A DNA stretch of 64,000 bases from Pseudomonadota bacterium (GTDB lineage: Bacteria > Bdellovibrionota_B > Oligoflexia > Oligoflexales > CAIYRB01), in NCBI GenBank assembly GCA_031416315.1, contig JANOTL010000223.1, forward strand, positions 9,877 to 73,876, read 5' to 3'. This document shows, piece by piece, positions 17,635 through 29,468 of this stretch. Each line of letters starts with the position of its first letter. Position 1 is the first letter of the stretch. The notes under the pieces are model-generated. The model saw only the letters and a program-made list of their open reading frames with translations. It searched no databases and was not told the DNA's origin. Both the position numbers and the translations under genes were made by a program.

Positions 17635-17958
17635 TCAGTTCCCGTCGCAGAATTTGATCGACTTGATCGTGCGCGGGAGGCCCGGGCTCTCGATCGCGAG
17701 GTCGGCGTAGCGGAATTTCTTGCCGTAGGCACCCTTCGCGTACTCCAAGGAGGTCTGCAGCCGGCAGTCCTCCTTCATCGTCTGGCGGTTGCGCGCGCAG
17801 ACGGGGATCATCCCAGGGTCGACCTTCTCCATCATCCCGGGCTCGGCCTCGAGCACCCAGACGCAGTTCTTTCGGCCTTCCGGGTCGCAGCCCCCCATGA
17901 GGAGGCCGGCGCCGGCAAGGAGCGCTACCGAGGCGAGGTGCTGCAGAAACCTTGGCAA
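17635..17958 (-). CDS. Small Cys-containing lipoprotein
   Basis: Lipobox LMGG-C; four further Cys residues. Confidence 0.6.
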   Translation of the reverse strand: MPRFLQHLASVALLAGAGLLMGGCDPEGRKNCVWVLEAEPGMMEKVDPGMIPVCARNRQTMKEDCRLQTSLEYAKGAYGKKFRYADLAIESPGLPRTIKSIKFCDGN

Positions 17959-18041
17959 GCTTGGACCCGTCCTGGTACGAATTGAGTTTCTTGCGGCTAT
18001 TCTATTCTGGCGGCCCGCATCCGGTAAAGGACGGCTCTTCC

Positions 18042-19046
18042 ATGCGTTACGAGATCGGACGTGAGCTCTCGCGCTTCAAAGCCCTCGCCGAGCGCCTCGG
18101 CGGCGAGCCCCTGGCACCTGGCGCTTACGCTCTGCGGCCTAAGCGCATCGCCATGAGCCTGCCCGCAGGCAAGGACCTCGGACTGACCTTGATGGGGATC
18201 GTCCACGGCAACGAATGGGCCGGCTTAGCGACTCTGAACAATACGCTGTCGCTGATCGAGGCGGGCGTCGTCGAGCTCAAGATGCCCGTGGCCTTCGTGA
18301 TCGGCAACCCCGACGCGGCTCGTGAGAACAAGCGCTTCCTGGGCAAAGACTTGAACCGCTCTTTCGCGGCCAAGCCGAACGGCGGCAATATCCCGGAGGA
18401 GGCGCGCGCGCGCGAGCTCGGAAGGATCCTCGAGCGCACGGCGTACCTGGTCGACTTCCACCAGACCTCACGCTCCGGCGACCGACCCTTCTTCATCTTT
18501 CCGTACAACCGACGCAGCTTCCTGTTCGCCCGCGGGATCGCGCCGCGGAAGACGATCGTGACGCATTGGGGACGACCCTTCTCCGCCGAAGGCATGTGCT
18601 CCGACGAGTTCACCAACTCCCACGGCGGCTGCGGCGTCTCGCTGGAGCTTGGGCAAAACGGCTTCGATCCGTATCAGATCGCGGTCGGGGTCGACTGCGC
18701 CTTGTGGGCGATCGCGACGACGCAGCGCTTCCTCGAACGCGGTGAGGCGCTCTCCGCTCACGGCGATCCGGAGAGCGAGGGCGAGCTCTACACCTGGGCC
18801 GAGATCATGGACTGGCCGGCCGAAGGCAGTCACGTCGAGCTGGTCGAGGGGCTCACCAACTTCCGCGAGATCGCGGCGGGGGAGCGGCTCGGAGCCGTCG
18901 ACGGTCGACCGATTGTAGCCCGGGTCGCCGGGCGGATGCTCTTTCCGAAGTATCTGACGCGAGAGCAGCAAAACGCCTTGGAAACGCGGCCGACCGAGTT
19001 GTGCCGCTTGGTGCGGCGCATATCCGAATCGGACTTGCCGGGCTGA
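18042..19046 (+). CDS. Succinylglutamate desuccinylase/aspartoacylase (M14-like) family hydrolase
   Basis: HGNE, GNP.A...NKRF..DLNRSF, DFH and SLELGQ motifs. Confidence 0.85.
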   Translation: MRYEIGRELSRFKALAERLGGEPLAPGAYALRPKRIAMSLPAGKDLGLTLMGIVHGNEWAGLATLNNTLSLIEAGVVELKMPVAFVIGNPDAARENKRFLGKDLNRSFAAKPNGGNIPEEARARELGRILERTAYLVDFHQTSRSGDRPFFIFPYNRRSFLFARGIAPRKTIVTHWGRPFSAEGMCSDEFTNSHGGCGVSLELGQNGFDPYQIAVGVDCALWAIATTQRFLERGEALSAHGDPESEGELYTWAEIMDWPAEGSHVELVEGLTNFREIAAGERLGAVDGRPIVARVAGRMLFPKYLTREQQNALETRPTELCRLVRRISESDLPG

Positions 19047-19061
19047 CGCGTGAGCGTCAGC
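19042..19061. terminator. Hairpin between convergent genes
   Basis: GCTGACGC-GTGA-GCGTCAGC, a perfect 8-bp stem. Confidence 0.55.
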
Positions 19062-19069
19062 TCGTCACT

Positions 19070-19204
19070 TCAGTCGCCGCCCGGGCGACCGTCGTCTTCT
19101 TTGCGGCCGCAGGTCTCGACCTGGCCAGCCTTCTTACCGCCGCCGTGGCGCGTGTGCGCAGGCTTGTTCACGACTTTGACTTTTTTAGACGTGCTCGGTT
19201 TCAT
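19070..19204 (-). CDS. Candidate RiPP precursor peptide, 44 aa: MKPSTSKKVKVVNKPAHTRHGGGKKAGQVETCGRKEDDGRPGGD
   Basis: GAGGT RBS shortly before ATG 19204; own promoter; downstream of and co-oriented with the rSAM-SPASM operon; SCIFF-like leader pattern K-V-K-V-V-N-K-P...GG; single Cys in C-x3-E-D-D. Confidence 0.7.
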   Translation of the reverse strand: MKPSTSKKVKVVNKPAHTRHGGGKKAGQVETCGRKEDDGRPGGD

Positions 19205-19236
19205 AAGTATACCTCGACCACCAGTTTGGTAACAAA

Positions 19237-19265
19237 ATGATACCAAAAAATGAGAACCGCGTCCA
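19237..19265 (-). promoter_or_regulatory. Putative sigma70 promoter for the 44-aa peptide
   Basis: On the minus strand, TGGACG-N17-TATCAT lies in an AT-rich patch with repeated TCATTTT. Confidence 0.5.
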
Positions 19266-19353
19266 GAGACATCGGCTCGACTCGCTGTCATTTCAGTAAG
19301 TTGCAGTTTCCGCGGGAGCGCGGCGCAGCCTCTGCCCCGTTGAAAAGCAAGTC

Positions 19354-21291
19354 TCATGCCGGCCTCGGCGTGAAGCTGACGCGGATCATTCCGGACTCGA
19401 TCGACATCTCGCCGCCGTAGACCTCGCGCGTCAAACGCCCGAGCCCGGCGAGGAGGTCACGATAGAAATGGTCGCCACCGAGCGTGCGGATGGGCGGCGG
19501 CGTCGGCCGCGACAACAGCTCCAGGACGGCGGGGTCGGGGAGGGCCCCGGTCTCGGAGACGAAGGCGAGCTCGAGGCGCTCGGGGAAGTCGTCGCCGCCT
19601 CGGACGCGGTAGCGCAGGCTGATCTGTTGCTCCTCGATCGCGCCCTCGTCGTCGGCAGCGAAGAGCGCCGCATAGGCGGCGATCGCCGCGATCAAGGCCT
19701 TCACGTCGAAGGCAAGAGGCATCATGACGAGGTCTTCTTCGCCCGGTTCGGGGCTCGCGACCATCGCAACACGGACGCCCATGCGGCGCAGGGCGGCGCC
19801 GTGCGTGCGGAGGAACTCGTCCATCAGCGCTCGGGCGCTGCGCGCCGTGGGAGCGAGCGAGCCCTCCTCCAGGGCCGAGGCGATGAGAATGCTACGGATC
19901 GCGAACTCCAGGCGCGCGGCGTGGCGCTCGGCCTCGCGGACGGCGCCGGCGCCACCCGCGGTCGTGCCGAGGATCGCGAGCATGCCTTGCAGCTTGGCCA
20001 CCGGCGTATTCAGATTGTGGCTCAGGAGCGAGATGAAGTTGCCCTTCAGATCGGCCGTGCGGGCGTGGACGCGCCCTTGCGCCGCGAGCCGCCACCTTTG
20101 GAAGGCGGTCAAGGAAAGGCGCGCGAAGCCGACGACGATGAAGGTCGAAAGGCCGAAGTAAGCGCAGTCGAAAAGCGGCATGTAAAGGCCGAGCTTTCTG
20201 ATGGCCAAGGCGTTGACGAAGGGACCGGCCAGCATGGCGACCAAGAACATCCCGGTCGCCGCGGTGCCGCCGAAGAGCGCCATCGCGCCGGTGATCACCA
20301 GGCAAAAAACAGCGACCGCGAGGACGACGTAGGACTGGGTCGGCAGGCGCACGGTAGCGCCGTCGAGGAACATCGAGGCGATCTGCGCCCAGAAGACGTG
20401 GAGCGGCGTGCCGGAGATCTCGGGATCGGCCTCGGCTCGGTCGTAGACGGTGCGCGTAAAACGCTTCACGTACTGGCCGCCGGCGGCGAGGGCGCCGGCC
20501 AGGTCGCTGCCGACGAAGGCGTAGCGCGCGGACGGCAGCGCGGGCAGCGCCAGGGCCTCGCGGAAGCTCAGGCGGCGGATCGTCTGCGGATCGGGGAGGT
20601 TCAGGACGTAGGCCGGCTGGATGCTCGGAAGGAGCTCGGTGAGCCAGGGTGCATCCTCTTTCTGCGGCGCGCCGCCCATCGTCTCGTTGGCGATGACGGG
20701 GAGCACCCAGTCGTCCCACTTGGCCGAGTAGGGACAGCTCGACTGCACTTTTTCGGGCAGGTCGTCGCACGGCGCGTCGTCGAGCGGCGTCGCGAGCTTG
20801 GTCAGCTCCTCCGGCAAGCGGTCGAGGTGCGCCGAGGGCGCCGCGATGTAGACCTTGGTCCTGCCGTTCTGCGCGAGCCGAGCGAGCGTCTCGACGAGCG
20901 GCAAGAGGTACACCTCGTCGAGAGGATGGGCCTCGGGATCGAGGCCTAGGAAGATCACCGGCACGTTGGCCGCCTCGAGCTTCTCGAGGATCCGCGCGTA
21001 GGAGGCGAGGGCCGCGTCGGGGACGACGCCACCCGGCGCGCGGCCCAAGACGCGCGCGTCGACGGCGTCGGCGGAGACGGCGAGGAGGGCGTCGCCGCTT
21101 TGGTCCGGGCGGCCTTTGGCGAGCTTGACGCTGAACTCGAGGAGCTTTTGCTCGGCGAGCAAGGACAAGCGCGACGAGCGCTGTCCGGAATAGACGACGT
21201 AGGTCAGCGAGGCGAAGAGGATCATCGCGACCGTGATCGGGTAAACGACGTCGAACCACCACAGCCGGTCGCGCCAGGAGCTGCGAAACAT
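19354..21291 (-). CDS. CHASE2-like membrane sensor with intact H-box but degenerate HATPase domain (phosphoacceptor pseudo-kinase)
   Basis: N-terminal TM, extracytoplasmic domain, 3 TM helices, then FISLLSHNLNTP. No recognisable N, G1 or G2 boxes downstream. Confidence 0.75.
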   Translation of the reverse strand: MFRSSWRDRLWWFDVVYPITVAMILFASLTYVVYSGQRSSRLSLLAEQKLLEFSVKLAKGRPDQSGDALLAVSADAVDARVLGRAPGGVVPDAALASYARILEKLEAANVPVIFLGLDPEAHPLDEVYLLPLVETLARLAQNGRTKVYIAAPSAHLDRLPEELTKLATPLDDAPCDDLPEKVQSSCPYSAKWDDWVLPVIANETMGGAPQKEDAPWLTELLPSIQPAYVLNLPDPQTIRRLSFREALALPALPSARYAFVGSDLAGALAAGGQYVKRFTRTVYDRAEADPEISGTPLHVFWAQIASMFLDGATVRLPTQSYVVLAVAVFCLVITGAMALFGGTAATGMFLVAMLAGPFVNALAIRKLGLYMPLFDCAYFGLSTFIVVGFARLSLTAFQRWRLAAQGRVHARTADLKGNFISLLSHNLNTPVAKLQGMLAILGTTAGGAGAVREAERHAARLEFAIRSILIASALEEGSLAPTARSARALMDEFLRTHGAALRRMGVRVAMVASPEPGEEDLVMMPLAFDVKALIAAIAAYAALFAADDEGAIEEQQISLRYRVRGGDDFPERLELAFVSETGALPDPAVLELLSRPTPPPIRTLGGDHFYRDLLAGLGRLTREVYGGEMSIESGMIRVSFTPRPA

Positions 21292-23219
21292 CAGGCCCCC
21301 TTCGCTTTCTGGAGGGCGAGCGTGAACTCGGCGCCTTTGCCGGGGGTCGAGCTGAGGTCGATCGCGGCGCCGATCTGGTCGGCGAAATACTTGCTCAGGT
21401 AAAGGCCCAGGCCGTGGCCTTTCAGCTTGTAAACCGAGTCGTCCTTCACGCGGTAGAACTTCTCGAAGATCCGCTCGTGGAACTCCGGCGAGATGCCGGG
21501 GCCCTGGTCCGCGACGCGGATGAGGAGACGACCGGGCGCGGGCTCGACGCGGATGGCGACGCGGCCGCCGACGGGCGAGTACTTCACCGCGTTGGAGACG
21601 AGGTTGTAGAGGATCTGCGAGAGAAGCGTGGGATCGGCGAGGGCGCTCGCGGTGTTAGCGACACCGTCGGCGACGTCGACCTCGATCGCGACCTTGCCCT
21701 CCGAGGCGCGCGACTCGAACTGGCGCACGACTTTCTGCACGACGGCCAAAGAGTCGATCCTGGCGAGGGGCAGGCGCTTCTTCTCCTGATAGGTGCCCCC
21801 AGCGGCGAATTTGGCGAACTGCTGGATGCCGTTCAGGTAGTCGTCGAGCTCCTCGCAGCTTCCCAAGGCGCGCACGAGCGCGTCTTTCGGCGTGCCTTCG
21901 AGGTCTTTCAAGGCCGAAGACGTCTCGAGCGCGGCGCGCGCGCGACGGTTGATCGCGGCGAGCTCCTCGGCGAAACGGTCGAGAAAGCGCTCTTGGATGG
22001 CGGCCAGCTCACCCTCCGATTTGGCGATGGCTTCGTGCTCGGCGCGCATGCGGGCCTCGAGACCGAGCCGCCGCAGGGCGCCGTAGGTCATCGCGAGGGA
22101 CGAGAAGAGCGCCGCGTCGGCGAGCGGGAGGTAGCGGTTGAGCCAGGCGAAGGCGGCGGCGTGGAGGAGGAGGAGGAGGGACCACCCGCCGATGAAGAGG
22201 AAGGAGGCGAAGCCGACGCTGGATTTCCAGATGAGCAAGGTCGCGACGGTGATGATGAAGGTCTGAAAGAGGTCGAAGGGGCGGGGAACGTCGCGTAGGA
22301 ATTTGTTTTGCGTGAGGTTCGCCAGGGCGACGCCTTGGACGTGGACGACCGGGATGCCGTCGGCCAGGTCCTCGCCGTCCATCTGCCAAGGCGAGTTGAC
22401 GAACGTGGCCTCGCGGTCGTGCGAGGTCCAGTTGCGCCAGGAGGTGTAACCGATGAGCAGCGTCTTGCCCTTAAGCTCGGCCAAGGTCGCGGGCTGTGCG
22501 ACCGCGAGCGACTCCGCTTTCCACGTGGCGAGCTGGCTCGGATGGAAGTAGTTGAGCTTCACCGCCGTACGGTCCTCGGGGAGGCGCCTCGCCTCGCCAC
22601 GCTCGGGAGCGAGAAAGCTCAGGTCCACGCCTTTGCGCGCCGCCAGGAGATAGGGAAGGAAGGGGAGCTCGCCCTCTTCCTTGACGACGAAGTCGCGGAC
22701 GATCTCGCGGCGGTAGTAGCGCGTGACGTCCGCCTTCGCGAGCTGGTCGGGAATCTTCTTGAAAGCCGCGGGGAGAAGCTCCGGCGATTGATTCTTCACC
22801 GAGAGGTCGAAGACCCCGATGACGAGGCGGCGGTCGCGGACCGCTAAGGCGGCGAGCTCTTCGGCCTGCGGGTCGCCGTACGGAAAGATCTGGTTCGGGA
22901 CGAGGACGGCGATGTGCGCGGCGTCGGTTAAAAGAGCGGCGCGGACGACGCGCAGAAGCGAGCGCCACGACAGATTGCGGGGCTTCGTGCGGTTCTTCTC
23001 GAGGTCGGGGCCGTCGAGCTCGGTGGTGGTCCAGTCGTCGATGGCGATGACGCCTAAGTCCGAGGTGTCGATCGAGGTCGGGGCCAAGCGCGTACGGATG
23101 TCGAAGAGCTTGCTCTCGACGCGGTCGCGTAGGGGCGAGCTGTTGTAAACGTAAAGGAAGAGGGCGCCGACGACGGCGGCGAAGGCGAGAAGGAGCGCGT
23201 TGGCGATCTTGTCACGCAT
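21291..23219 (-). CDS. CHASE2 membrane histidine kinase with intact HATPase domain but no phospho-His
   Basis: CHASE2 hallmarks (ESKLFDIR, VIAIDD, ELKGKTLLIG, PVVHVQG); NLVSNAVKYS, DQGPGI, IFEKFYRV and GHGLGL boxes. The H-box position reads FAEELAAI. Confidence 0.85.
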   Translation of the reverse strand: MRDKIANALLLAFAAVVGALFLYVYNSSPLRDRVESKLFDIRTRLAPTSIDTSDLGVIAIDDWTTTELDGPDLEKNRTKPRNLSWRSLLRVVRAALLTDAAHIAVLVPNQIFPYGDPQAEELAALAVRDRRLVIGVFDLSVKNQSPELLPAAFKKIPDQLAKADVTRYYRREIVRDFVVKEEGELPFLPYLLAARKGVDLSFLAPERGEARRLPEDRTAVKLNYFHPSQLATWKAESLAVAQPATLAELKGKTLLIGYTSWRNWTSHDREATFVNSPWQMDGEDLADGIPVVHVQGVALANLTQNKFLRDVPRPFDLFQTFIITVATLLIWKSSVGFASFLFIGGWSLLLLLHAAAFAWLNRYLPLADAALFSSLAMTYGALRRLGLEARMRAEHEAIAKSEGELAAIQERFLDRFAEELAAINRRARAALETSSALKDLEGTPKDALVRALGSCEELDDYLNGIQQFAKFAAGGTYQEKKRLPLARIDSLAVVQKVVRQFESRASEGKVAIEVDVADGVANTASALADPTLLSQILYNLVSNAVKYSPVGGRVAIRVEPAPGRLLIRVADQGPGISPEFHERIFEKFYRVKDDSVYKLKGHGLGLYLSKYFADQIGAAIDLSSTPGKGAEFTLALQKAKGA

Positions 23220-24586
23220 CAGGCGGAGAGGAGCTCAGGGGCGCGCTCGAGGAGGATCGCGTAGACCCGCATCGCTTGCTCGATCTCGACCGCTTGCAGG
23301 CGGCAGAACATCGGGTCGACCGCGAACGTGTCGCCGGTGGCGGCCTTGTTCTCGTGCAGGCAGCCGCCGGCGCACCATTCGCGCATCCAGCAGGTGTCGC
23401 ACGGGGCCTTTTTTGCCTCGCGAAAGGCGGAAACCGCGTCGAGCTTCTTCTGATCGAGGCCGTGCAAGACGTCGCCGAAGCGCTCGGACTCGTCCTCGTT
23501 GAAGCGGTGGCAGAGGTGGAAGGCGCCCTCGGCCGAGACGGTGAGGTAGTTGACGCCGGCGCCGCAGGCTTTGCCGCCGGTCTTGCCGTCGCGGATGTTC
23601 AGAAGGTGCTTCTTGACGTTGTCCAAGCGCAGGAGCGCCTTGAAGTCCCCCGCCTCGACCAGGCGGTCGATGACCTTGACGTAGACGGCGGCGAGCTTCG
23701 CCGCGTCGGCCTCGGTGAAATGGAAGACCTTGAGCGGCGAGGCCTGATGATAGACCGCGAGGCGGTAGTTGTGCGTCGTCAGCGTCTTCAGGATCGCCTC
23801 CTCGAGGAGGTTCACGTTGTCGCGCATGACGGTGGAGCGCAGGATGAAGCTGCGGAGGCTCGCGAGCTGCTCTTGGAAGGCGCGCAGCTTTTTCTCGACG
23901 ACGGGCTCGGACGACTGCTGGCCCACCATCGGGCGCTGCTTCGCCTGCAGGCCGTGGCCGTCGTAAGAGAGGGTGACCGAGACCTTCTTTGCCTTGAGCC
24001 ACGCGAGCTTCTCGTCGTTCAAAAGAGTGCCGTTCGTGGTGACGGCATAGCTGAAGCGCGTGCCGGTGGCGGCTTCGCGCGCCTCGCACCAAGTGACGAC
24101 GTCTTTCATGACGGGGTAGTTGAGGAAGGGCTCGCCGCCGAAAAAGATGACGTGAAAGTAGGCTTTGTCCTTGGTCAGGAGCTCGAGCGCGGCGACGGCC
24201 GTGTCCAGCTTCATCAAGCCCTTGTTGCCGTAGTCGCCTTCGCCGGCGAAACAGTAGAGACAGCGCAGATTGCAGCCTTGCGCCAGGTTGAGCGAGCAGG
24301 CGACGACGTCGGTCTTCACGTCCCGGGGCGGAGGCATCGGCAGGCCGCGCGCGATCTCGTCGAGCTCGGCGTCGGCCCCTTCCACGGACTCGCGGCCTTG
24401 GACGTGGCGGATGAGCTCATCGGGCGCTTCGAGGACGTGCGCCGAGGGAACGTGGAGGAGGAAGCCGGCGTCGAAGGCCTTCCAGACGCCCCGGAAAGCT
24501 CGCACTTCCGACGCGACGCGGGCTTCCAGCTCGAGGTCACGAGCGTCGGCGGCGAGCGAGGCGGTTGCGGGTGCGATCGGTGTCAT
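23219..24586 (-). CDS. Radical SAM/SPASM peptide maturase (CteB/SCIFF thioether-forming type)
   Basis: CNLRCLYC, FFGGEP and TTNGTLL motifs; SPASM C-x17-C...CxxC-x5-C-x3-C-x18-C; RRE-like N-terminus. Confidence 0.9.
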   Translation of the reverse strand: MTPIAPATASLAADARDLELEARVASEVRAFRGVWKAFDAGFLLHVPSAHVLEAPDELIRHVQGRESVEGADAELDEIARGLPMPPPRDVKTDVVACSLNLAQGCNLRCLYCFAGEGDYGNKGLMKLDTAVAALELLTKDKAYFHVIFFGGEPFLNYPVMKDVVTWCEAREAATGTRFSYAVTTNGTLLNDEKLAWLKAKKVSVTLSYDGHGLQAKQRPMVGQQSSEPVVEKKLRAFQEQLASLRSFILRSTVMRDNVNLLEEAILKTLTTHNYRLAVYHQASPLKVFHFTEADAAKLAAVYVKVIDRLVEAGDFKALLRLDNVKKHLLNIRDGKTGGKACGAGVNYLTVSAEGAFHLCHRFNEDESERFGDVLHGLDQKKLDAVSAFREAKKAPCDTCWMREWCAGGCLHENKAATGDTFAVDPMFCRLQAVEIEQAMRVYAILLERAPELLSA

Positions 24587-24645: not shown

Positions 24646-24731
24646 CGTAGATGCCAAACTCGGGGCGCGTCCCAGCAGCCATTGAGCAAGAACGATACCA
24701 TATAAGGAAGCCTGTCCTGGGAGGAGCCTCG

Positions 24732-25931
24732 GTGCATCGTCTCGGCCTCATTTTTGGTCTCTTTTTGGCCGCGTCGCTGGCGCTGGCGCAGGGCGGCGCC
24801 TTGCCCAAGGGCGACCTCGGTACGGTCGACCAGGGGAAGGTGAAGGCGCCTTCGGCGCCGAAAGGCGAGGCGCGCCGCAACTGCCTTCTCGACTCGCTGC
24901 GCCCGACCGGAGGCAGCGGCGTGTGGAGCGCCACGGGCGACGCCTTCTATTTGCTCGCGAGCCGAGGGCCGACCGCGAAGATGCAGAAGAAGGGCGCCGA
25001 GTCGCTGAAAACGAAGTACACGCTCTACAAGCTCACGATGAAGGGGCGGAAGGTCGAGGCGCTGCTGTCGCTCGACCACAAGGGCGACGCGACGCTCGTC
25101 GCCTTCGGTAGCGGCGAGGAGCTCACCGGCATCTCCGCGGTCTCGTTCATCGGCAAGAGCATGGGCTGCAACGAAGGCCCCGCCGGCATGGTGAGCATCT
25201 CGATGCAGGGCGGCAAAGCCGTGCAGGGGACGGGACAGTTCGCGCTCGCAGCGGGGCCGATGGGGCGCACGCTGATCGACGCAAAAAAGCTGAACGTGCT
25301 CGAGATGGACACGTCGAACTTCCAGACGCGCTCGGTGCGGGCGCTCAAGGACTTCGAGCGGCCCCTTTGGTTCGATGGCGGCGCGCGTCGGCTCGTCACG
25401 TTCCGCGACGACGGCAAGGTCCGCGGGCTCGTCGATTACAAGTCGGAAGACGACAAGAAGGCGCGGAAGCTCGCATTCAAGCCGGAGGAGCGCGCTCTGC
25501 AGCAGAAAGACCTCTTCGGCATGGCGCGGCTCGACGCGGCGAAGAACGCGATCGAGATCCAGGAGCTCCCCGAGTGGTCGGGACAGAAGGAGCCGCAGAG
25601 CTTCCGCGTCGTGCTGCCGGGGGCGTTCGCGGTGGCGACCGCGGGCGTCGACATCCACTTCGAGAAGCGCCTGGCGCTCGTTTCCGGCGGAACTTTCGTC
25701 GCGCGGCAGCAGTGGCAGAAGCTTTTCGTTTTCGCGTACCAGCGCCAGGATCCGCTCTTCGTGATCAGCGCGCCCGGCAAGCAATACGTGAGCTTTGCCG
25801 CGTTCGATCCGACGGGTGCTTACGCGGCGGTCGAGGCGCGCGACATCGAGTCGCGGGCGACGACGAGCTTCAAGATCTTCGACGTGGCGAAGAAGAAGAT
25901 CGAGGAGATCAAGCTGCCGGCGCCGAAGTGA
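24732..25931 (+). CDS. Secreted hypothetical protein (possible beta-propeller)
   Basis: GAGGAG RBS, GTG start, signal peptide LALA-Q; WSATG and FDPTG repeat-like motifs. Confidence 0.65.
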   Translation: MHRLGLIFGLFLAASLALAQGGALPKGDLGTVDQGKVKAPSAPKGEARRNCLLDSLRPTGGSGVWSATGDAFYLLASRGPTAKMQKKGAESLKTKYTLYKLTMKGRKVEALLSLDHKGDATLVAFGSGEELTGISAVSFIGKSMGCNEGPAGMVSISMQGGKAVQGTGQFALAAGPMGRTLIDAKKLNVLEMDTSNFQTRSVRALKDFERPLWFDGGARRLVTFRDDGKVRGLVDYKSEDDKKARKLAFKPEERALQQKDLFGMARLDAAKNAIEIQELPEWSGQKEPQSFRVVLPGAFAVATAGVDIHFEKRLALVSGGTFVARQQWQKLFVFAYQRQDPLFVISAPGKQYVSFAAFDPTGAYAAVEARDIESRATTSFKIFDVAKKKIEEIKLPAPK

Positions 25932-25984: not shown

Positions 25985-26854
25985 ATGAGCGTGCGGGTCG
26001 GGATCGCGACCTCCGTGGACCATCCGCAGCTGATCGACGACGACCGGCTGTTCCTGCCTTACCTCGCGGCGCGCGGCATCGCCACGGAGCCGGCGATCTG
26101 GAACGATCCCGCCGTCGACTGGCGGCGCTTCGATGCGGTGGTGATCCGCTCGACCTGGGACTACTACGAGAGGATCGCCGAGTTCCGCCTCTGGCTCGAC
26201 GGCCTGATCGCGGCCGGAGTGACGGTCTGGAACCCAGTGCCGACGGTCCTGCGCAACGCCGATAAGACGTATCTGCGCGAGCTCGAGAAAATGGGCGTGC
26301 TGACCCTGCCCACGGTCTGGATCGCGCCCGGCGAGGCGGAGACCATCGCCTCCGTGCTGAAGGCGGTGCCGTGGCAGGATTTGGTGGCGAAGCCGTCGAT
26401 CTCCGCGGGCGCCTATCGCACGGTGCGCTGTTCGAAGCGAGAGCTCGAGGCGAATCCAGGCTTGATCGCGACGATCATCGCCGACTCGCACGCGATGATC
26501 CAGCCGTTCATGCAGGAGATCGTCGACGAGGGCGAGTGGTCCTTCCTCTTCTTCGGCGAGGAGCTTTCGCACGCGGTGGTGAAGAAGCCGAAGCCCGGAG
26601 ACTTCCGGGTCCAGTACACGCACGGCGGCAAGCACGTGAAGGCCGAGCCGCCGGAGGCCTTGGCGGCGGCGGTCGCGAAAGTCTTCGCCCTGATCCCGGA
26701 GCCGCCGCGGCTCTTCACGCGGGTCGACGGCATCTGGACCAAAGGCCGGTTTCTCTGCATCGAGATCGAGATGATCGAGCCGGTGCTCTTCCTCGCGGAA
26801 GACAAGGAATCGCCGGTGCGCTTCGCGAAGGCCCTCGCGGACCTACTTCGATAG
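25985..26854 (+). CDS. RimK/glutathione-synthetase-like ATP-grasp enzyme
   Basis: RSTWDY, NADKTYL, VAKPSISAGA, GDFRVQ..HGG, RVDG and EIEMIEP motifs. Confidence 0.85.
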   Translation: MSVRVGIATSVDHPQLIDDDRLFLPYLAARGIATEPAIWNDPAVDWRRFDAVVIRSTWDYYERIAEFRLWLDGLIAAGVTVWNPVPTVLRNADKTYLRELEKMGVLTLPTVWIAPGEAETIASVLKAVPWQDLVAKPSISAGAYRTVRCSKRELEANPGLIATIIADSHAMIQPFMQEIVDEGEWSFLFFGEELSHAVVKKPKPGDFRVQYTHGGKHVKAEPPEALAAAVAKVFALIPEPPRLFTRVDGIWTKGRFLCIEIEMIEPVLFLAEDKESPVRFAKALADLLR

Positions 26855-27946
26855 CTTCTCTTTTTCTTGCTTGTTGGCCTTCGCATCCATCTCTTTCTTG
26901 TGCTTGGCCTTCTCCTGCTTCTTGACCTCGGCCGTCTGATCCTCGAGAAACCAGGTCTTTTGCAGGGCCTTGAGCGTGATGGTCAGCTCCTGCATCGTCT
27001 CGAGTGTCGTCTTGGCGAACACCGGATTCTTCTTCATCTCCGCCGAGACGGACTCGAGCGCGTCGAGAATGGAGATGACGAGCTTCTGGCGCTCTGCCAC
27101 GGGGGCTAAGACGACGTTCGCATATTGCATGGTCTTGTCCATGTTGCCGAAGGCCTTGGCCATCAGCTTCGTCTCCAGGAGGTCCTGGTCGATCTTCTCG
27201 AAGGTGTCGGTGCCGGCGACGACGAAGTTCTTCATCAAGCCGTTGGCGAAGAGATCTTTGTCGAGGCGGCCGAAGACCCTGGCGCCGGAGTCGACGAACT
27301 TCGGGATCTCCATGTTCTTTTTCTTGAGCTCCTGCGTCATGACGATGAGGTCGTCGGTGAGCTTGAGCACGTTGTTCAGGACCGGCGGGACCTTGGCGAT
27401 CACTTCGTTCATCTCGCCGGACTTGTAGCGGGAGAAGATCTCGTTGGTGTCCTTTAGCGCGGTGGTGATCCCGGCCAGGAGGGTGTCGACCGAGTTCATC
27501 ATCTCGGAGAGCTTACGGCCGGAGAGGAACTCCGACAGGTCGGTCGCTTCTTTGCCGCTGATCGTGCCGCGATGCGGGATCTCGGGGCCGTCGAGCGCGC
27601 CGGGGATGATGTCGATCTTCTTCTCGCCGATGATGAAGGCGCGGAAGACGTTGGCGACCGAGCCTTCGCGGATGCGCTCGGCGACGGTCTTCTGAACCTC
27701 GAGCGTCACGGTGATCCGGTTGTCGGGCTCGACCTCCAAGCCCGCGACCTCGCCGACGCGCAGACCCGAGATGGTGACAGCCGAGCCGATGCGCAGGCCG
27801 TCGGCGTCCGTCACCTTGGTGAAGTAGGTGTTCTTCGCCTCGAACCAGAAGTTGCGCTTGCCGATCTGCCAGATGGCAAAGCCGACGAACATGCTCACGC
27901 CGAGCATGCCGGCGAGCGCCTTCTTTTCTTGCGTTGAAAGGCTCAT
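26843..27946 (-). CDS. MlaD/MCE family protein
   Basis: TM helix then ADGLRIGSAVTISGLRVGEV MCE motif and a long helical C-terminus; ATGA overlap with the upstream gene. Confidence 0.88.
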   Translation of the reverse strand: MSLSTQEKKALAGMLGVSMFVGFAIWQIGKRNFWFEAKNTYFTKVTDADGLRIGSAVTISGLRVGEVAGLEVEPDNRITVTLEVQKTVAERIREGSVANVFRAFIIGEKKIDIIPGALDGPEIPHRGTISGKEATDLSEFLSGRKLSEMMNSVDTLLAGITTALKDTNEIFSRYKSGEMNEVIAKVPPVLNNVLKLTDDLIVMTQELKKKNMEIPKFVDSGARVFGRLDKDLFANGLMKNFVVAGTDTFEKIDQDLLETKLMAKAFGNMDKTMQYANVVLAPVAERQKLVISILDALESVSAEMKKNPVFAKTTLETMQELTITLKALQKTWFLEDQTAEVKKQEKAKHKKEMDAKANKQEKEKLSK

Positions 27947-28728
27947 GCGCTTTTCCTTACGGCGCGAACGCCGAGAGCGCGCAGGATGTCCGCGCTCTTG
28001 ATCCATTCGTCCGCGATGAAGTCTCGGTAGTCGGTGGTGATGCGGTTGGTCTCGGGATGGAGGACCCAGTCGGCCGCCGCGAGGCCGAAGGGATAATCGT
28101 TGGTGCCGATGAGGATGCCTCGACCCTTCGCCTTCTGCTCGAAGAGCCAGTTGAGCATCGCCGGCATGGTCGGCGAGGCGATCAAGGCAGAGGGGTCGTC
28201 CAAGATCAAGACGCGCGGGTCGAGGACGATCGAGCGCGCGAGGAGGACGCGCTTCCTGATCTCCCAGTTGATGCGGTCCGGGCGCACGTGCCAAAGATTC
28301 TCGGGAATCCCGGCCTGGCGCAGGGCGCTGATCGCGATCTCGTTCTTCGTCATCCCCTCATGGTAGCGGTCGTGGTACTTCGCCGGCAGGTCGACGTTGT
28401 CCATGAGCGTCAAGTTCGAGAGGAGCCCCTTCTCGCGGAAGCCGAAGCCGATCCGCTGGCGCCAGGCGCTCAGCCCCTTGTCGTTCGATTTCGCGTCGCG
28501 GACGTGCGTGCCCTCCAAGACGAGCTCGCCCTGGTCGATCTTGCCGGTGCCCATGATGAGCCGGAAGAGGGACGAGGTCTCCTTGCCGCCGAAGACGACG
28601 CCGACCTGGCCGCCGAGGAGCGCGAAGTCGAGCGGATGCACGTTCCCCAACGGGCCGAGCGGCGACGAGCCGACGACTTGGCGTAGCTCCAATTGTGGCT
28701 TTCCGACACCGGTGGAGAGCTCGGTCAC
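27943..28728 (-). CDS. MlaF-like ABC ATPase-fold protein with degenerate catalytic motifs
   Basis: ABC fold (GLLSNLTLMDNVDLP, RKRVLLARSIVLDPRVLILDDP) but Walker A, signature and H-loop are altered; GTGA overlap with mlaE. Confidence 0.8.
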   Translation of the reverse strand: MTELSTGVGKPQLELRQVVGSSPLGPLGNVHPLDFALLGGQVGVVFGGKETSSLFRLIMGTGKIDQGELVLEGTHVRDAKSNDKGLSAWRQRIGFGFREKGLLSNLTLMDNVDLPAKYHDRYHEGMTKNEIAISALRQAGIPENLWHVRPDRINWEIRKRVLLARSIVLDPRVLILDDPSALIASPTMPAMLNWLFEQKAKGRGILIGTNDYPFGLAAADWVLHPETNRITTDYRDFIADEWIKSADILRALGVRAVRKSA

Positions 28729-29468
28729 AAGTCGATCCCATACAGGACGTAGTAGATGACGCTTAGGGTGAAGTGGATGCCCATCGCGAAGGTGAGCGAG
28801 TCGACGACGGCACGGTTGGTGACGATCGGCACCTCGAAGGGCGCCGCCTTCAAGGACAGCCCGCGTTGCAGGCAGGTGTTGGCAATGACGCCGCCGATGA
28901 TCACCGTCTTCAGGGTGAAAAAGAGGAAATCCGCGGGGCGGATCGCCTGCGCCACGCTCGTCAGATACTGCGAAAGCGGGAAATACGAGCTGATGTTGGC
29001 GCCGATCCAGCCGCCGAGAAGGGCGAAGCCGAGGAAGGTGATCGACATGCAGGTGAGCGACACCATCAAAGCCACGATGCGCGGCGCGAGGATGTAGTGG
29101 TAGACGTTGATGCCCATGATGTTGAGCGCCTCGATCTCCTGCTGGAACTTGATCGTCGCCATTTCGGCAGCGATCGCGGTGCCGGAGCGCGCGATGATCA
29201 GCATGGCGGAGACGAGCGGCGTCACCTCGCGGAAGACGATGAACACCAGCACTTTGCCGAGCTGATTGTTGTTGCCGAGCAGGGCGAGGCCGAAGTTTGC
29301 TTGCAGCGCGATGGCGACGCCGGAGCCGATGCCAAGCACGGCGATCATCATGGTCGACTGCACGAAGGTGAAATAGATCTGCATCAGAGTGTTCCGGAAG
29401 AACTCTCTGCGGTGTCCCCGTTCCCAGGGAAAGTAATTGGCTAAGCCGAGCCGGGCGATGAGGGCCAT
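28725..29468 (-). CDS. MlaE family ABC permease
   Basis: REVTPL..IARSGTAIAAEMATIK..EIEAL..MGI..Y..PR and VP.VTNRAVV motifs. Confidence 0.9.
   Translation of the reverse strand: MALIARLGLANYFPWERGHRREFFRNTLMQIYFTFVQSTMMIAVLGIGSGVAIALQANFGLALLGNNNQLGKVLVFIVFREVTPLVSAMLIIARSGTAIAAEMATIKFQQEIEALNIMGINVYHYILAPRIVALMVSLTCMSITFLGFALLGGWIGANISSYFPLSQYLTSVAQAIRPADFLFFTLKTVIIGGVIANTCLQRGLSLKAAPFEVPIVTNRAVVDSLTFAMGIHFTLSVIYYVLYGIDL

Follow-up and report, generated by a model that had tools for sequence, protein, structure and literature searches.

A likely one-ring ranthipeptide family beside a putative split pair of CHASE2-type sensor kinases in Oligoflexia

We analyzed a 64,000-nucleotide stretch of contig JANOTL010000223.1 from an Oligoflexia genome (assembly GCA_031416315.1; this whole stretch is called the window below), in which the genes for a radical S-adenosylmethionine (rSAM) maturase, two sensor histidine kinases (HK1 and HK2) and a 44-aa peptide follow one another on the minus strand. 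The maturase and its precursor are likely a new family of ranthipeptides with one thioether ring, and HK1 and HK2 are likely the two parts of a heterodimeric split kinase (or phosphatase). Taken jointly, that the one-ring peptide is made and that the heterodimer forms appears rather probable. An earlier note on this DNA, made from the sequence alone, had proposed the peptide locus and its sensors; a point absent from it is that neither sensor is a complete kinase and that their lesions are complementary. Both halves of the system have precedents, and what is new is a likely ranthipeptide family placed on a putative split CHASE2 kinase whose losses are fixed in sequence. The genome set comprised 131 genomes of the class, and a phylum-level query gave the same 131.

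The maturase and its precursor peptide

The sequence and the predicted model of the maturase support its assignment to the CteB-type enzymes, in which a RiPP recognition element (RRE) precedes the radical SAM and SPASM domains. Cysteines C105, C109 and C112 of the radical SAM motif CxxxCxxC, which lies in a PF04055 match, are invariant in 20/20 orthologues. The same is true of the seven SPASM cysteines that the earlier note had counted (C341, C359, C396, C399, C405, C409 and C428), and their spacing is as in CteB. The closest solved structure by sequence is PDB 5wgg (E of 4e-38 for the single sequence and 1e-60 as a profile), which we take to be CteB. The model (mean pLDDT 84) aligned to 5wgg with a Z of 39.2 and an rmsd of 2.8 over 401 residues, residues 32-446 lying on 5wgg 1-450. 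Model residues 35-81 form three strands and two helices, and at least 47 aligned pairs precede the radical SAM core; the RRE-like N-terminus read from the sequence is thus supported, with two helices and not three. A PqqD look-alike match for this domain at 0.86 is a lead only.

Among NCBIfam models the maturase scored best against the PapB, QhpD, Nif11 and SCIFF maturases, each time under the cut-off, and all 20 orthologues matched the same six families. The window copy is not a member of the PapB family NF047865 (222.5 bits, cut-off 340; the best of the 20 orthologues reached E 8e-76), nor of the QhpD family TIGR03906 (220 bits, cut-off 453). It is likewise outside the SCIFF maturases (TIGR03974; 173.9 bits, cut-off 425), and its precursor has one cysteine, not six in ~45 residues. 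Since the enzyme matches CteB with an RRE, has the seven SPASM cysteines and scores under the cut-off of every named family, we concluded that maturase and precursor are likely a new one-ring ranthipeptide family. The maturase is single-copy in the genome and occurs in 28/131 genomes of the class, and a metagenome scan with its profile gave at least 2 family members among the 80 loci listed. One maturase gene (G063:C142) is broken into two frames, in a genome that is 75% complete and in which HK2 was not found.

A very improbable alternative is that the maturase modifies a protein, for example the sensors, in the way of QhpD or anSME, instead of the peptide of the short ORF. The QhpD model does score level with PapB (220 vs 222 bits), and three genomes have the maturase with no peptide found. 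However, an RRE is present and the best fold match is CteB. The earlier note had named clustering with anSME-type enzymes as a way to be wrong; the anSME family TIGR03942 gave 52 bits at a cut-off of 349, and the anSME alignment begins only at maturase residue 93 (Z 30). The peptide also carries a Cys-x-acid pattern, the cysteine pair of HK2 is retained in lineages without the maturase, and no quinohemoprotein genes were seen among the 21 conserved neighbour clusters scanned (45 were listed, from 55 loci).

The precursor ORF lies where it had been placed before, ~150 bp downstream of the sensors on the same strand with a GAGGT ribosome-binding site; it begins 149 nt past the HK2 stop. In most maturase loci HK2 is followed by a short ORF that combines a (V/I)(V/I)N(K/T/S)P-type strand with a late cysteine. 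The first seeds were picked by position, ribosome site and cysteine, and three of them (in G067, G061 and G062) have no NKP motif and rest on those criteria. A profile search then gave four homologues that were not seeds, one on a metagenome contig (L127) and the others in G021 (4.6 kb downstream), G047 and G068. Over four close pairs the ORF had a pooled pN/pS of 0.38 (pS 0.42, pN 0.16; Fisher P 4e-9), a sign of purifying selection. These four homologues and the pN/pS value argue that the ORF is more than a chance reading frame. In a relative ~90% identical over the locus, found in DNA contigs of another study, the listed indels are all outside the short ORF. Conservation of the ORF near homologous maturases, which the earlier note had asked about, was borne out by homologues in 21/28 maturase genomes, one of them truncated at a contig end. 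With the final profile, 18 genomes gave matches at E<=1.3e-4, all of them maturase genomes, and the 103 genomes without the maturase gave no match better than 0.028.

The acid residues of the peptide point to the likely ring. Asp or Glu stands at position +4 or +5 from the last cysteine in 17/19 precursors, vs 1/19 at +1 to +3, and two copies found later both end in CLRED and agree (2/2, 19/21 in total). By author-set lineage groups, 10/12 have this acid (binomial P 2e-5). The product is therefore likely a single thioether from Cys32 to Glu36 or Asp37. Glu and Asp had been proposed as acceptors together with Thr; the acids stand, while Thr was dropped, for the window precursor has no Thr after the cysteine and the conserved downstream residue is acidic. 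The single cysteine described for the precursor is found in the window copy and in 16/21 precursors, and 5/21 have extra cysteines. PapB is reported to accept Cys-to-Asp spacings of 0-6 and to require a leader with a conserved Asn (passages of PMC9413430). As a first step of the mechanism, the RRE would very probably bind the V-x-V-V-N-K-P strand and the enzyme would link Cys32 to the beta or gamma carbon of Asp37 or Glu36.

Several observations weigh against this assignment. Two precursors have no acid at +4/+5, and no peptide was found in 7/28 maturase genomes (G002, G011, G012, G027, G037, G063 and G069). Three of these form family f2 (L057-L059, that is G027, G012 and G037), in which the maturase and both sensors are kept and HK2 abuts an AstE-like gene. 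The profile was built from maturase genomes and could miss divergent copies elsewhere; a first profile failed on known copies, and a lack of match is weak evidence of absence. In addition, the G047 and G068 copies sit on other contigs, away from the sensors, each adjoining the small lipoprotein gene (107-aa in the window).

Apart from this, the peptides of G062 and G061 (loci L109 and L110) begin with MKHF-x-LLN, presumably a resemblance to the SCIFF leader.

Two paralogous sensors as a probable split kinase

HK1 and HK2 are paralogues along their entire length (prob 99.3), and neither has the phospho-accepting histidine and the N, G1, F and G2 motifs of a canonical HisKA kinase in one chain. 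HK1 has no His at position 418 in 43/44 aligned orthologues, and it keeps the ATP-binding residues N539, N543, Y547, D571, G573, R590 and G601/603/605 (N-box, G1, F-box Arg and G2) in 44/44. HK2 has H425, N426 and T429 in 44/44; its C-terminal domain retains the ATPase fold but not the ATP-binding motifs, and its cytoplasmic model matches regions of RetS and DivL. Thus the ATPase is on one sensor and the acceptor His on its tandem paralogue, as in FasBC. One HK1 of the 44 (G014) does have His at 418, which counts against the split.

The pattern extends beyond these orthologues. From the best 150 matches of a library-wide search we kept the 122 of at least 540 residues, and 110 of these are of the HK2 type: His and the H+4 Thr are present in 110/110, H+1 is Asn in 106 and Asp in 4, and N, G1 and G2 occur together in 0/110 (N and G2 only in 3/110). 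The other 12 (within P0170-P0184) are intact CHASE2-type kinases that read HDLKTP, 11/12 with all three boxes. A tree of 35 proteins (unrooted) separated HK1, HK2 and intact clades with support of 99, 95 and 98, and the HK1 and HK2 trees are congruent (19 shared splits of 26 and 25, with 1 conflict). The pattern is consistent with an intact CHASE2 kinase having been duplicated, each copy later losing what the other kept, and with a heterodimer in which the ATP site of HK1 acts on the His of HK2. The intact HDLKTP kinases are the nearest outgroup of the pair, and in L109 and L110 the outgroup HK2 lacks the G1 Asp while its N-box and G2 remain. A second HK1-HK2 pair (L111, G001:C136) lies on a 2.8-kb contig of a same-genus genome.

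The two proteins had been described as CHASE2 sensors. The window copies gave no CHASE2 match in Pfam, and we call them CHASE2-type on the matches of their orthologues to PF05226 (E<=1 in 11/18 HK1 and 5/18 HK2; best 1e-22 and 9e-6). No solved structure for the CHASE2 part was found by sequence search or among the fold matches listed. Lineages that lack the maturase still have the HK2 pair Cys175/Cys186, which is what a disulfide would predict.

From their complementary lesions we consider HK1 and HK2 as likely halves of one heterodimeric enzyme, and as a second step dimerization via their DHp helices is probable. Prediction of a complex of HK1 27-478 with HK2 36-488 scored 0.19 vs a mark of 0.32 and was used neither for nor against it. 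An improbable alternative is that the two are separate homodimers with other partners, HK1 being a pseudokinase like DivL and HK2 a phosphotransfer protein like ChpT or RedE. The genome has ~88 kinase-like proteins that could serve as partners, and the HK2 cytoplasmic model resembles RetS and DivL regions. Against separate homodimers, HK1 and HK2 are adjacent wherever the contig permits, including 24/26 loci without the maturase, their trees are congruent, and their lesions are exactly complementary.

A heterodimer could act as a kinase or as a phosphatase. Passages of PMC3510030 and PMC8292422 report that CrdS, HK853 and Agp1 need the H+1 acid for kinase activity, even Gln failing in CrdS, and that an H+4 Thr or Asn is needed for phosphatase activity in several HisKA proteins. 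By these needs the HNLNT of HK2 has a phosphatase-ready and kinase-impaired look, and the Asn at H+1 speaks against a kinase. It is accordingly conceivable, if less probable, that the heterodimer is a signal-gated phosphatase, in which the HK2 His and H+4 Thr dephosphorylate a regulator charged by another kinase and the ATP site of HK1 is a required nucleotide switch. The H+4 Thr is universal and Asn replaces the Asp of the intact relatives at H+1, the loci showed no adjacent regulator gene, and DrBphP, with a non-acidic H+1, is an ATP-dependent phosphatase (passages of PMC8292422). On the other side, in HK1 neither N-box asparagine nor the lid Arg has been lost, and its lid carries an acid and a Tyr particular to the clade (D/E594 in 41/44 and Y/F597 in 40/44), the H+1 Asn is fixed and does not vary freely, which suggests a role, and some HisKA-like families are without the acid (passages of 10.64898/2026.02.27.708494). 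The lid of 11 intact relatives is variable, with an acid, counted by eye, in 0/11 at the same Arg offset and in 4/11 from the Gly side. We modestly preferred trans-phosphorylation with a substitute base. As a third step, given the dimer, the chances are slightly better than even that the HK1 ATPase phosphorylates His425 of HK2 in trans and that the phosphate passes to an unlinked response regulator; Asp594 of the lid perhaps replaces the lost H+1 acid.

The peptide as signal or output, and the gene neighbourhood

HK2 occurs in 53/131 genomes and in 27 of the 28 with the maturase, and in the remaining 26 HK2 genomes no maturase match was found. HK1 adjoins HK2 in 24 of these 26 loci; in the other two the contig runs out too early, and a few of the copies are either split or short. 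The sensor pair is thus not dedicated to the peptide, contrary to the earlier note. The most distant family carries all four genes, and G022, nested in a maturase clade, gave neither a maturase match nor a peptide 3′ of HK2. From these two cases the peptide module looks ancestral and losable, in trees whose deep branches are weak and whose root was placed by taxonomy. We concluded that the system has the two sensors as its core and can lose the peptide module.

No such peptide was found 3′ of HK2 in the maturase-less genomes, except for a Cys-less ORF in G028. That short ORF (L094:2145-2246) has the palindrome described below and a ribosome site, without a Cys or NKP motif; the genome is 81% complete and no maturase was found in it.

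The pheromone role proposed in the earlier note, with the modified peptide as a ligand of the sensor pair, is possible, if less likely than not. SCIFF ranthipeptides have been tied to quorum sensing (passages of PMC8102284, citing Chen 2020). HK2 accompanies the maturase in 27/28 genomes, the maturase is translationally coupled to HK1 by one of the TGATG overlaps that the coordinates confirm between the maturase, HK1 and HK2 genes, and the peptide stays next to HK2 where the maturase sits elsewhere (G061 and G062). HK1 Trp278 is kept in 18/19 peptide-bearing rows vs 1/20 maturase-less rows and is Arg in G022; the column was chosen post hoc and has 2-3 independent contrasts. In the three f2 genomes, where no peptide was found, this position is Phe. 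Tyr114, Tyr224 and Pro290 did not hold up as positions that track the peptide.

An even chance is given to the alternative that the pair does not have the ranthipeptide as its ligand; the peptide would then be an output regulated through the palindrome or have an intracellular role, the sensors reading an unrelated periplasmic cue. The retention of the pair in 26 genomes without a maturase match means that the peptide cannot be its sole input. The peptide gene is relocated in G047 and G068, the length and charge of the precursor cores vary widely, and the ORF retained in G028 has the palindrome but no Cys. The 21 neighbour clusters scanned showed neither an exporter nor a protease nor a response regulator, and the genome has only two C39 peptidase matches, both weak. 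Of an Agr/Com-type cassette, precursor and sensors are present and exporter and regulator were not seen, nor was a cognate regulator of the FasBC kind in the operon among the conserved neighbour clusters. Independent-pair tests for Trp278 and for co-loss of maturase and peptide rest on 2-3 pairs and cannot reach significance. All of this tells against a peptide ligand, whereas the presence of HK2 in nearly all maturase genomes, the translational coupling and the Trp278 pattern tell against an unrelated cue.

The control region of the peptide gene bears on both readings. A promoter scan recovered the TGGACG-N17-TATCAT promoter proposed before among 2 promoter-like sites, vs 0.1 in shuffles. Overlapping it is a 19-bp palindrome, found 41-45 nt 5′ of the ATG in 10/23 upstream regions; with at most 3 mismatches a site is present in 11/23 of them vs 18/4600 shuffles, the consensus being derived from the same regions on which it was tested. 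In this genome the copy at the peptide gene is the sole site with at most 2 mismatches. Such sites occur in 111/131 genomes with a mild excess over control (229/112 in genomes with HK2, 214/153 in those without), and with this mild enrichment we do not claim a regulon. To judge from the DNA, a dimeric regulator may use the palindrome as its operator, and this could be the response regulator that was not seen at the locus. The hairpin reported after the peptide stop exists, with an 8-bp stem (z -2.98 for 66 nt folded); a U-tract is lacking, and no terminator came out of the terminator scan. In a possible fourth step, somewhat less likely than not, the modified peptide would reach the CHASE2 domains by an unspecified export route as a species-variable signal, and the palindrome would serve as a feedback operator. 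The sum of these elements, an obligate heterodimeric HK1-HK2 kinase that arose by duplication and complementary decay, with ATP and the base Asp594 from HK1, sensing a ranthipeptide through CHASE2 with feedback at the palindrome as a species-specific Oligoflexia quorum system, is doubtful as a whole.

Coordinates of the locus and its neighbours are given in Table 1 and below. A 426-aa protein (24651-25931, plus strand), divergent from the maturase, gave no match in Pfam and probably has a signal or a membrane anchor; it is conserved upstream in 16/55 loci, one of these without the maturase. A 107-aa putative lipoprotein (17635-17958, minus strand), which contains Cys, has no Pfam match and is present in 81/131 genomes. 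An AstE/AspA-family hydrolase (17952-19046, plus strand) converges on the peptide gene in 15/55 loci and occurs also without the maturase; it could be a peptide trimmer. Close to the locus are genes for MlaE, a probable ABC ATPase and MlaD (26843-29468, minus strand), which we did not accept as the exporter, as they are conserved nearby in only 4/55 loci.

Table 1. Features of the maturase, sensor and peptide locus (window positions)
Feature	Position	Strand	Description
rSAM maturase	23219-24586	minus	455 aa; RRE-radical SAM-SPASM; CteB-like; 7 SPASM Cys
RRE-like domain of maturase	24344-24493	minus	residues 32-81; model: three strands, two helices
HK1	21291-23219	minus	642 aa; CHASE2-type sensor, membrane helices, DHp without phospho-His (E418), ATPase domain intact
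HK1 codon 418 (Glu)	21966-21968	minus	site of lost phospho-His
HK1 ATP-lid Asp594	21438-21440	minus	candidate stand-in general base
HK1 sensor Trp278	22386-22388	minus	covaries with peptide presence; lead only
HK2	19354-21291	minus	645 aa; CHASE2-type sensor, Cys175/Cys186, DHp with His425, C-terminal ATPase fold without N/G1/G2 boxes
HK2 H-box HNLNTP	20002-20019	minus	His425; H+1 Asn; H+4 Thr
Sigma70-like promoter match TGGACG-N17-TATCAT	19237-19265	minus	TG ahead of -10; consensus match only
19-bp palindrome TGGTAWCA-N3-TGWTACCA	19227-19245	no strand	overlaps -10; candidate operator of peptide gene
GAGGT ribosome-binding site	19211-19215	minus	5′ of peptide ORF
Precursor gene	19070-19204	minus	44 aa; leader motif VKVVNKP; single Cys32; likely acceptors Glu36/Asp37
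GC-rich hairpin without U-tract	19042-19061	minus	between converging peptide and AstE-like genes

Novelty and relation to known systems

Literature searches gave no paper on Oligoflex* ranthipeptides and none for phrasings of a heterodimeric histidine kinase, and supplementary cluster tables could list the locus. For Bdellovibrionota ranthipeptides the searches returned genome-mining papers, and the passages of one do not describe the system. HK1 and HK2 offer a natural, class-wide case of what is likely one sensor kinase split over two paralogues of full length, for which both intact relatives and half-decayed intermediates exist, and the pair makes the trans-phosphorylation and H+1 base questions testable with two soluble fragments. 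For a PapB-like cyclase, the unannotated minimal ranthipeptide family provides 21 substrates found in nature. Should the peptide bind the sensors, CHASE2 domains would gain a ligand and a ranthipeptide its receptor; to our knowledge neither is known, and the titles and abstract beginnings in literature listings showed neither.

The closest peptide system is the SCIFF pair CteA/CteB (5wgg), which shares the RRE-rSAM-SPASM fold, seven SPASM cysteines with equal spacing, a beta-strand leader ending in Asn, the absence of a linked exporter and a suspected signalling role. It differs from the locus here, where the maturase is under the SCIFF cut-off (174 vs 425 bits), the precursor has one conserved Cys instead of six and a likely acid acceptor, the genes are translationally coupled to sensor genes and the host is Gram-negative. 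PapA/PapB (freyrasin; NF047865) gave the top NCBIfam score and shares the order of Cys then Asp/Glu and the conserved leader Asn, whereas the present maturase is under the cut-off (222 vs 340 bits) and its precursors usually have one motif, with mixed C-x3/C-x4 spacing.

For the sensors the nearest likeness is FasB/FasC of Group A Streptococcus, tandem membrane sensor kinases for which passages of PMC12675982 give a heterodimer model, one protein giving the ATPase and the other the His: both the kinase domain of FasB and His246 of FasC are required, and FasB and FasC bind each other and not themselves. According to the same passages, FasB keeps its DHp histidines, the FasC kinase domain is dispensable by deletion, the sensors have six transmembrane helices and the regulator FasA is in the operon. 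The pair described here differs in that its losses are sequence-fixed, its sensors belong to the CHASE2-HisKA type with Asn at H+1, and it has no linked regulator. Rv0600c and Rv0601c divide the ATPase and phospho-acceptor domains between two polypeptides, and these proteins, like Hik36 and Hik43, are partial, whereas HK1 and HK2 are full-length paralogues, each with a sensor domain and both folds. Hik36/Hik43, which have ATPase and phospho-acceptor on separate polypeptides, are called split kinases in passages of PMC7656254, and passages of PMC3544749 list Rv0600c/Rv0601c as two sensors with one regulator. The light-gated phosphatase DrBphP shares the kept His, the non-acidic H+1 and the phosphatase-suited H+4 (passages of PMC8292422); it is a homodimer with its own ATP site, whereas in the present pair one protein carries the His and the other the ATP site.

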